Shown: positions 29,635 through 31,248, counted from the first letter of the whole stretch. The stretch is DNA of 62,476 nt, filler included, from Stramenopiles sp. TOSAG23-6 (GCA_900128565.1; 30 parts of 30 records of this genome joined end to end with filler, not necessarily neighbours in it); one strand, 5' to 3'. Numbers and translations are program-made. The notes: generated by a model not told the origin, from the letters alone.

Positions 29635-31248
29635 ATGAGTTCTGATGATATATCAGCTGTGTATCACAACAAAACCCATGAAGAATGTGTTCCTACCCCG
29701 GCAGAGCTCGCGATGAAGAATGGCTCTGGTATTGGTGACATGGAAGACATGGTAAATGGCCTTGACCTAGGCCCTGACGTTAGTCGTGGTTCTCGCCCAC
29801 CAATGGTACTCAATCGCGTTGTTTCCAAGCGACGTGCACAACGTAGAAAAAACAGTAATAATAGGGAAGTAGAATCAAAAAATAACGAAAATGTATCTGA
29901 ATTATCTAATTTGGAGTCTCCAGTGAAAAGTGAAAAAACCTCGGTTATACCCGGAACTCAATCAATCTGGGTAAAGACGTATGGTTGTTCCCATAACATC
30001 AGTGACAGTGAATACATGTCAGGAATGCTTGATTCTTATGGATATCGTATCGTTGAAGATAAAAGCTCTGCAGATCTTTGGCTTATTAATAGCTGTACTG
30101 TAAAGGATCCTTCGGAAAGCGCTTTTGTTAATTTAGTGGAAAGAGGAGCTAAACTAAACAAGGGTGTTGTTGTGGCAGGTTGTGTACCCCAAGGTGATGA
30201 AAATGTACGAGGTCTTGAAGATGTCAGTGTTGTTGGTGTTAGCCAAATTGATCGGGTGGTGGAAGTTGTTGAAGAAACTTTAAAAGGTAATACTGTCCGC
30301 CTGCTCGCGAAGAAGTCACTTCCCCGCCTCGATTTACCAAAAATTCGTCGTGATAATCTCATTGAAATTATTCCCTTATCAACTGGTTGTCTCGGTGCAT
30401 GTACATACTGCAAAACAAAACATGCTCGTGGAGTATTAGGTTCTTACACAATTGAAACTATTGTTAATCGGGCTCGTGTGGCTATTGATGAAGGTGTTGG
30501 TGAAATATGGCTTTCATCTGAAGATACTGGTGCATATGTATGTGTTCAACCCTAACCACTAGTACCCCTAACCACTTCAAATTTCGATTTTTTTTTTTTT
30601 CAAAATCATGTCTCTAACGAGTTTTATTTGAGTTGAAATATGTTCCAAAATTACATGGTCGTGATATTGGAACAAGTCTTCCTTCGCTACTTAATGCACT
30701 CATCGAACTCCTACCTATTGGAGGAAATACGATGCTCAGAGTTGGAATGACAAATGTATGTTTTATTTTTTTTTTGTTTTCGAAAAAAAAAAAATCGAAT
30801 TTATTTTTCGTACGAAATTTTGTACCTAACAAATTTTCTAAATTTTTTTGAAATATTTTTCCAAAATGCATCCGCCTTTTATTCTTGATCATTTAGATGA
30901 AATTGCGGACGCTTTAAATCATCCTCAAGTATTTTCATTTCTTCATGTTCCTGTCCAATCTGCTAGCGATAATGTTCTTCGTGGGATGAATCGTGAATAT
31001 ACAAGAGATGAGTTTTGTCGCGTTGTAGACTTTTTACGCCGACGGGTCCCGGGTATCGTCATTGCGACAGATATTATTTGTGGCTTTCCTGGAGAGACGG
31101 ATGTTGATTGGTTAGATACACTCAGACTTGTTAAGCGATATGAGTTTCCTATATTAAACATCTCACAATTTTATCCACGACCAGGAACGCCAGCCGCTCG
31201 AATGAAGCGCGTGAGAACTCAATTAGTCAAAGCGCGATCTCGAGAATT
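29635..31248 (+). CDS. CDKAL1: tRNA methylthiotransferase CDKAL1; exons 29635-30537, 30657-30755, 30872-31248
   Basis: TYGCSHN, radical-[57 protein letters not shown]. Confidence 0.95.

Follow-up and report, generated by a model that had tools for sequence, protein, structure and literature searches.

Predicted introns ending in AT and belonging to an abundant, mobile-looking repeat family interrupt CDKAL1 and other genes of a marine stramenopile

The CDKAL1 Gene and Its Two Inserts

The window analyzed here is a stretch of 62,476 nucleotides (nt) of DNA from Stramenopiles sp. TOSAG23-6 (GCA_900128565.1). It consists of about 30 contigs of about 2 kb each, which are ordered by descending length and joined by linkers of the form N44-TTAATTAATTAA-N44, as found at positions 2004-2103 and 4106-4205; its mean G+C content is about 30%. 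Since the contigs are unrelated and merely linked, adjacency across a linker is meaningless and each gene is to be regarded as a fragment. The contig at 29352-31339 carries, on the plus strand, the larger part of a conserved gene for a tRNA-modifying methylthiotransferase of the CDKAL1 (e-MtaB) type, the coding sequence of which is interrupted by two short inserts that begin with GTATGT and end with AT. These inserts are probably introns which derive from a mobile "introner" family resembling miniature inverted-repeat transposable elements (MITEs), and which combine a normal donor and branch site with a terminal dinucleotide that is a duplicated piece of the target rather than AG. The features of the contig are the following:

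29635..30537, plus strand: CDKAL1 exon 1, 301 codons from ATG, with the UPF0004 domain, the start of the radical-SAM domain, and a C-x3-C-x2-C motif; open frame
30538..30656, plus strand: insert 1, 119 nt, GTATGT...TTACAT, a divergent family member
30538-30543, plus strand: GTATGT, putative donor of insert 1
30550-30559 and 30565-30575, plus strand: two copies of CCCTAACCAC in insert 1
30611-30618, plus strand: branch-like TCTCTAAC of insert 1, by sequence match
30631-30632, plus strand: in-frame alternative AG of insert 1, 13 nt past TCTCTAAC
30635-30656, plus strand: family 3' block of insert 1, GAAATATGTTCCAAAATTACAT
30657..30755, plus strand: CDKAL1 exon 2, 33 codons, GRDIG...RVGMTN
30756..30871, plus strand: insert 2, 116 nt, GTATGT...ATGCAT, a full-length family member
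30756-30761, plus strand: GTATGT, putative donor of insert 2, followed by a T-rich stretch
30808-30825, plus strand: palindrome of insert 2, TCGTACGAAATTTTGTAC
30822-30830, plus strand: candidate branch motif of insert 2, GTACCTAAC, by sequence match
30850-30871, plus strand: 3' block of insert 2, GAAATATTTTTCCAAAATGCAT
30872..31248, plus strand: CDKAL1 exon 3, PPFILDH..., ending in phase 2; open frame
31249..31339, plus strand: third insert, start only, with GTACGT at 31249-31254, TATACCTAAC at 31302-31311, and an nhmmer match at 31282-31315

The third insert reaches the contig end at 31339, and the remainder of CDKAL1, including the TRAM domain, lies outside the window. The three exons are open in three different reading frames. 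In the Pfam comparison, the UPF0004 (MTTase) domain PF00919 is found on exon 1 (3.9e-21), the translation of which also displays the cysteine motif of the radical-SAM core. Positions 1-56 of the Radical_SAM profile PF04055 fall on exon 1 and positions 90-166 on exon 3, and the 33 residues of exon 2 exactly fill the intervening positions 57-89. An earlier note on this DNA, made from the sequence alone, had given the coordinates and terminal letters of both inserts correctly and had claimed that two conserved motifs are restored without insertion or deletion once the inserts are removed. This is borne out by the alignment of the script-joined product of the three exons, which is free of gaps at SEDTGAY/GRDIG and at RVGMTN/PPFIL with respect to 11 of 11 chosen orthologues. 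Among 120 orthologue matches, the pattern G[MT][TSA][NH]P[PN], which spans the second junction, is contiguous in all, and the pattern D..YG, which spans the first, in 110; six of the other ten were printed, five of these being free of an insertion (four with AWG, one with AYG) and P0002 diverging further upstream, and four were not printed.

The exons share 65-73% identity with the orthologues and contain neither a stop codon nor a frameshift (exon 1 is 65% identical to P0001 over residues 15-301), and no sign of reassigned stop codons is apparent across the 459 codons of the joined product. The best named protein matches are from oomycetes, the nearest sequences being stramenopile-like and not animal, and the poorly conserved N-terminal part of CDKAL1 is common to P0001 and the oomycete sequences. 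Elsewhere in the window, the long exon of the RIC1-like gene gave no match in a search, and matches in the PDB were obtained for the kinase and dynamin exons, none of them diagnostic of a lineage. Portions of exon 1 are matched at 95-99% by contigs from seawater RNA libraries of three studies. All six of the differences listed are synonymous and in the third codon position (chance 0.0014), which is modest evidence, the contigs being small and perhaps derived from close relatives. Considering the intact exons together with these synonymous differences, the CDKAL1 copy looks alive or, more cautiously, is not obviously dead.

Both inserts possess a GT donor with the extended consensus GTATGT and, judged by motif matching, a candidate branch motif and T-rich tracts upstream of the 3' end; the last two bases at both colinear junctions are AT and not AG. 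The G+C content is 30% in insert 1 and 18% in insert 2, compared to 42% in the exons. AG is absent from all 116 nt of insert 2, and no in-frame, stop-free AG acceptor is found from within insert 2 to 90 nt downstream, which is in accordance with the earlier note's statement that a canonical acceptor is unavailable there. That note had presented the two inserts together as a clean test pair for GT-AT introns. For insert 2 this description holds, but insert 1 contains AG dinucleotides at 30561, 30620, and 30631, the last of which reads into exon 2 in frame and without a stop; its use would add eight residues between GAY and GRD, that is, within the conserved motif.

The inserts are absent from the relatives in which the locus could be followed. 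In three loci, L001, L004, and L007, the region across both junctions is covered by single uninterrupted tblastn segments. The closest of them, L001, is a 7.8-kb contig of 57% G+C, in which residues 15-459 are matched in one segment at 71% identity and which shares even the poorly conserved N-terminus. The absence from three relatives indicates that both inserts were gained on the present lineage.

The Inserts as Members of an Abundant Repeat Family

The pair is not the isolated oddity that the earlier note had taken it for, since a highly abundant repeat family, represented by 54 regions in the window, includes them both. The family unit of about 100 nt starts with GTAYGT and ends with ..CCAAAATACAT; in between, a palindrome followed by GTACCTAAC lies between two T-rich stretches. 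In the consensus, GTATGTTTTATTTT, TCGTACGAAATTTTGTACCTAAC, and GAAATATTTTTCCAAAATACAT follow each other, separated by two T-rich parts. The core of every copy is a near-perfect palindrome (GTACGAAATTT[TC]GTAC) which directly abuts the branch motif CTAAC, and in some introns (26554-26721, 53775-53905, and 17133-17321) core and branch motif are present in tandem as two or three copies. The predicted CCTAAC-type branch motif is located about 30-57 nt from the intron end, and a conserved TTTTCCAAAAT is found 5-15 nt before the 3' end. With up to three mismatches allowed, 47 matches to the 19-nt palindromic core of insert 2 are present in the window, where 0.04 would be expected. Nine full copies could be aligned from end to end, and a profile built from them yielded 130 matches at E <= 10 and, at E <= 1e-4, the 54 merged regions mentioned above, which are copies or fragments. 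Insert 2 matches this model over nearly its whole length (30756-30870, model positions 1-99, E = 1.2e-19), insert 1 over 30578-30654 (model positions 18-98, E = 2.7e-5). The host genes are unrelated and encode, among others, SIR2, a LIM protein, leucine-rich repeat (LRR) proteins, a RIC1-like protein, and a BEACH-type WD40 protein. A scan of the window against Rfam gave no match.

With respect to the dominant adjoining open reading frame (ORF), 34 of the 54 regions lie on the same strand and one on the opposite strand, with 19 being ambiguous (p = 1e-9 for at least 34 of 35). For the frame test, the 3' end was taken from the profile and the donor was defined as the nearest upstream GTAY[AGT]T, and removal at offset 0 was compared with removal shifted by one base to either side. 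At offset 0, 18 of the 23 testable sites, insert 1 included, join two ORFs, where one third would be expected (p = 1.3e-5). In the SIR2 and dynamin genes, the exons on either side of the family copies match the same Pfam profiles with near-continuous coordinates.

Many contigs start or stop within a family copy, which is probably the reason why the assembly fell into pieces of 2 kb. The element at 30759-30892 is also very deeply represented in seawater RNA, where the summed contig depth reaches about 20,000 in one library and contigs extend from the 3' end of the element into unrelated flanks. From the contigs and their depth it would follow that unspliced copies of the element, or its DNA, are abundant in marine metatranscriptomes. 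In the four seawater metatranscriptome runs X1-X4, from four studies, which contained 5-9% of the sampled words, no RNA contig bridging either CDKAL1 junction was found, a result that is neutral on splicing. Covered in these runs are 29924-30368 of exon 1, 31084-31253 at exon 3, and the repeat at 30759-30892, the depth of the latter coming from other copies. A protein search with exon 3 returned nothing above 71% identity and no near-identical spliced protein, which implies that spliced products of this species are missing from the records at those lengths.

Intron Ends, Direct Repeats, and Splice Register

Of the family 3' ends that are readable (n = 35), 26 are AT, three AA, two TT, and one each AG, GG, GT, and TA, the TA being a misplaced end; thus 34 of the 35 are not AG. 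Only 3 of 22 curated introns contain an AG that is in frame and stop-free. The curated set comprises 23 introns, of which 18 were obtained from the profile, four from an ORF scan, and one by inspection. In 16 of them, the dinucleotide preceding the donor is identical to the last two bases of the intron (14 AT/AT, one AA/AA, and one TT/TT; shuffled-pairing p = 0.023), and in 15 the dinucleotide before the donor is AT, compared to a background of 0.10 (p = 2e-10). A 2-nt repeat that is mostly AT is the pattern that a 2-bp target-site duplication favoring AT would be expected to produce. The two ends are complementary over five to six bases, exon AT plus GTA(T) facing (A)TAC plus AT.

The 2-nt direct repeat has a consequence for the definition of the splice sites, which the earlier note had considered fixed as GT-AT. 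Because the two nucleotides ahead of GT repeat the last two of the insert, several cut registers lead to the same mRNA, namely AT-AC, TG-CA, GT-AT, and TA-TG for insert 1 and AT-GC, TG-CA, and GT-AT for insert 2. With exon and insert both ending in AT, the protein alignment fixes the position of the junction and not the dinucleotides. GT is the first dinucleotide in 23 of 23 curated introns, and a shifted register would make the first two bases variable. Introns with differing repeat copies, which include those at 23365-23471, 24717-24820, 33677-33868, 56639-56759, and 62139-62239, are informative in this respect; for the one at 33677-33868, the GT...AT cut produces R in the charged repeat REARE-R-ELREAR and the other registers produce W. 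The constancy of GT throughout the family and this one mismatched-repeat case are the reasons why GT-AT would be the preferred register, indirect as these grounds are.

A Proposed Route of Intron Gain and Removal

The best explanation of these observations is a recent invasion of the genes of an AT-rich marine eukaryote by the repeat family. According to this scenario, a mobile element would insert with a 2-bp duplication, mostly of AT. Each copy would bring along a strong GTAYGT 5' splice site, a branch motif GTACCTAAC resembling that of yeast, and a T-rich tract, its own end being ..ATAC. At the end of the excised unit, the two nucleotides ahead of GT would be repeated, and most introns would consequently end in CAT instead of CAG. 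The major spliceosome would cut before the G of GTAYGT and ligate two bases past ATAC, whichever bases stand there. Eventually, with the element and one copy of the duplication removed, the original codons would be restored. As judged by analogy, relaxed or duplicated 3'-site factors such as those described from Fritillaria (see below) might serve as a lead for how CAT could be accepted beside CAG. A more tentative idea, which we hold to be possible though somewhat short of probable, is that position and not AG defines the 3' splice site, which would be located two bases past ATAC for any duplicated pair (AT, AA, TT, GT, GG, or AG).

Ordinary introns are also present in the window. An LRR gene on the minus strand contains three GT-AG introns of 131-132 nt, at 38609-38479, 38415-38285, and 38221-38090, which are near-identical to each other, start with GTATGTAACA, and end with TATGTAG; the 63-nt exons between them encode one repeat each and are in frame. 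Furthermore, the family copy at 55837 ends with ..ATACAG exactly at the family end. From these introns and this copy it is evident that the organism does use AG. The GTATGT donor, on the other hand, is common to both kinds of introns, which argues for a single (major) spliceosome.

Several points weigh against the proposed origin and splicing of the inserts. Besides the coexistence of ordinary GT-AG introns in the same window, a CAT 3' end is not known to work with the ordinary U2-type machinery. Splicing is a prediction, as no RNA contig of the four runs bridged a junction. The frame test failed at 5 of 23 sites: at 33808 a false donor within the palindrome was chosen, at 52925 the upstream exon is very short, at 57889 the model end is one base short, the case at 46263 is unclear, and at 40003 the copy, located in the dynamin gene, is truncated. 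The curated set of 23 introns was in part picked with the reading frames in view and is not blind. In 7 of these introns the direct repeat is imperfect, with a match at one of its two positions. The putative terminal inverted repeat, consisting of GTA/TAC and the direct repeat, is of very small length, and no compensatory change in the paired ends occurs among the 23 introns, with C at position +4 standing opposite A in 8 of them. As a result of the very short inverted ends and the lack of compensatory changes, the designation as a transposon rests on the copy number and the 2-nt repeat. Pairing of the intron ends as the main mechanism, in the style of euglenids and Amoebophrya, was dropped for the same lack of compensatory changes, and no functional helix is claimed.

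Introns of eukaryotes end in AG almost without exception, and the large-scale departures known so far are few, namely, larvacean tunicates, Amoebophrya, euglenids, and minor-spliceosome introns. If the 3' splice site is indeed set by position, relaxed or retuned 3' splice-site recognition would operate alongside normal GT-AG splicing, and it would have originated independently of the larvacean tunicates, on introns with a textbook donor and branch site. A second, unrelated lineage with mobile introns that mostly end in AT, donor and branch site being perfect, would constitute a clean natural experiment on the choice of the splice site in the second step and on what allows genomes to endure bursts of intron gain. 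Should RNA confirm it, a further way for a cell to tolerate invading mobile introns would be at hand. On the practical side, gene finders that require AG would break most genes of this organism.

Alternative Explanations

Among the alternatives, the one that concerns insert 1 only is a conventional GT-AG intron at 30538-30632, the protein gaining LKYVPKLH between GAY and GRD. The AG at 30631-30632 would be suited to this role, as it is in frame and stop-free, the ORF 30618-30851 being open through it, and as its distance of 13 nt from the branch-like TCTCTAAC is typical. Yet the 120 orthologues examined show no extra residues at this site (with the reservations on P0002 and on the four unprinted matches given above), the final 22 nt of insert 1 share homology with the 3' block that is taken out along with other family copies, and insert 2 of the same gene is without a comparable AG option, all of which makes this reading unlikely. 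Slightly less credit still is given to the possibility that the introns are the same but the register lies two bases to the left, by which most copies would become AT-AC introns (ATGTATGT...ATAC). Terminal pairing of a first A with a last C is tolerated, and AT-AC introns are already handled by spliceosomes. Such a cut of insert 1 would yield the identical mRNA, 15 of 23 introns have AT immediately before the donor, and ..AC occupies positions -4/-3 in most family ends. This register, however, would turn insert 2 into an AT-GC intron, and copies with AA, TT, GT, or CA upstream would leave it without a constant 5' dinucleotide, whereas GT is constant throughout the curated set; at register 0, GTAYGT makes a perfect donor, which the LRR GT-AG introns share, and the mismatched intron at 33677 would place W instead of R into the charged repeat. 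Very doubtful, too, is the involvement of a divergent minor (U12-type) spliceosome, the introns of which tolerate non-AG ends including GT-AT. In its favor, the family donor GTATGTTTT is one position off the U12 variant GTATCTTTT, and the conserved TTTTCCAAAAT lies close to the 3' end. The U12 donor consensus [AG]TATCC/CT ([AG]TATCCTT), on the contrary, is not matched by the inserts, which read GTATGTGT and GTATGTTT with G at position +5; the GT-AG introns also start with the GTATGT donor; and the clear branch motif is as far as about 40-48 nt from the 3' end. The TTCCAAAAT block near the 3' end matches the U12 branch consensus TTCCTTRAC in part only.

Two further possibilities dispense with splicing of a living gene, and both appear highly improbable. 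If the elements were cut from DNA like the internal eliminated sequences of ciliates, with precise excision of the transposon remnant plus one duplication copy, the 2-nt direct repeat and the short inverted ends would be well accounted for. Excision from DNA should, however, ignore orientation, while 34 of 35 decidable copies are in sense orientation; donor, T-tract, and branch motif are found in each copy, and the 459 codons are without apparent reassigned stop codons. An excision bounded by TA, of the mariner or ciliate type, was considered as well and rejected, as it does not reproduce the needed junction. Of equally little promise is the notion that the CDKAL1 copy is dead or an assembly artefact, rendering the restoration of the frame meaningless. 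The assembly is indeed very fragmented, with contigs of about 2 kb, and one neighbouring gene, that of dynamin, contains a seemingly truncated or collapsed element. Against this stand the three intact exons with 65-73% identity, free of stops and frameshifts and with continuous profile coordinates, the exclusively synonymous environmental differences (6 of 6), and the recurrence of the same insert pattern in unrelated genes. On balance, spliceosomal removal of an invading introner with a GT-AT register would accommodate the data best.

Relation to Known Non-Canonical Introns

In full-text searches of the literature, no description of the family or of GT-AT introners in a stramenopile was found; supplements, which may hold per-species intron classes, were outside the scope of this search. 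In the introners of Micromonas pusilla, Aureococcus, and other aquatic eukaryotes, the target duplication completes a splice site, and the resulting introns are of the GT/GC-AG type (PMC11282704). Shared with these are the many near-identical short elements in unrelated genes, the short target duplications, and the putative inverted ends, as well as the principle that the element supplies one splice site and the duplication completes the other (PMC11282704); unlike in those introners, the duplication in the present family is usually AT, giving a CAT end, and the inverted ends measure only 3-6 nt.

The nearest parallel is found in the larvacean tunicates Fritillaria borealis and F. pellucida, where 3'AT is the commonest intron end (34% and 44%, respectively; PMC13326754). 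There, a YAY triplet before the 5' site equals the last three bases of the intron, the U-rich tract is kept, and a transposon origin has been proposed (PMC13326754, PMC11282704); divergent U2AF paralogues bind the non-AG ends, and in F. borealis the main intron classes begin with AG, 5% of the introns being canonical (PMC13326754). Both CDKAL1 inserts end in CAT. Ahead of the donor, 11 of 23 introns have the triplet YAT; in insert 1 this triplet is TAT, and in insert 2 it is AAT, hence not YAY. In contrast to Fritillaria, the introns described here begin with GT and the host is not an animal, its CDKAL1 grouping with stramenopile-like sequences. A tunicate origin of the DNA, which had been raised by the parallel in 3'AT and YAY, was rejected in view of the N-terminal part of CDKAL1 being common to P0001 and oomycetes.

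In Amoebophrya, non-canonical repeated introns carry direct repeats of 3-5 nt and inverted repeats of 8-20 nt that form hairpins; a dominant dinucleotide is lacking and U1 small nuclear RNA was not found (PMC7789003). The overlap of direct repeats with the exon/intron borders, the inverted repeats at the ends (putative ones in the present case), and the ambiguity of the exact border are common features (PMC7789003), but the perfect GTAYGT donor, the branch motif, and the one dominant end (AT) set the present family apart. In Physarum polycephalum, GT-AT is a rare variant of minor-spliceosome (U12-type) introns which is spliced, the 3' dinucleotide being loosely specified (10.1101/2020.10.12.336362). 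The GT-AT pair itself is thus shared with Physarum; the divergent donor and the large distance of the branch motif from the 3' end are not. The nonconventional introns of euglenids possess neither a polypyrimidine tract nor a GT donor and depend on pairing of their ends (PMC11282704). With them the family has in common the non-canonical borders, the junction repeats resembling target-site duplications, and the proposed MITE origin (PMC11282704), whereas compensatory changes in support of end pairing are missing here.

Other Features of the Window

The GT-AG introns of the LRR gene represent a second intron repeat that is unrelated to the GTAYGT...AT family. The next intron of the same gene, starting at 38026, seems to end with ..CACAATTTTTAT, that is, with AT, ahead of an exon encoding an IQ motif. 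In the dynamin gene (40048-40003, minus strand), only the last 42 nt or so of the element (..GAAATATTTTTCCAAAATGCAT) are present, directly past ...IEE and without GTAYGT or CTAAC. Removal of 46 nt (GTTCAA...GCAT) keeps the frame there, the Pfam coordinates proceeding from 120 to 124, and a few residues found in other dynamins may be absent; this truncated copy may have arisen by deletion or by collapse of the assembly.

Short runs of telomere-type CCCTAA/TTAGGG are scattered in introns and near gene starts (30550-30575, about 9540-9560, 17500-17530, 53055-53075, and 53660-53680) and read as NPNPT in many spurious translations. At 27838-29250 (minus strand), a fragment of an ABC transporter is followed by about 1.2 kb of repetitive, low-complexity coding sequence rich in T/N/C/I/G, with a G+C content of 41%, well over the window mean. 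The first contig (1-2003) has a G+C content of 43% and is devoid of family copies; it consists of a single long minus-strand ORF with repeats of about 90 residues that are rich in G/S/T (..SGSFSIRTS..GVSGSIS..), and it may stem either from the same organism or from a contaminant.

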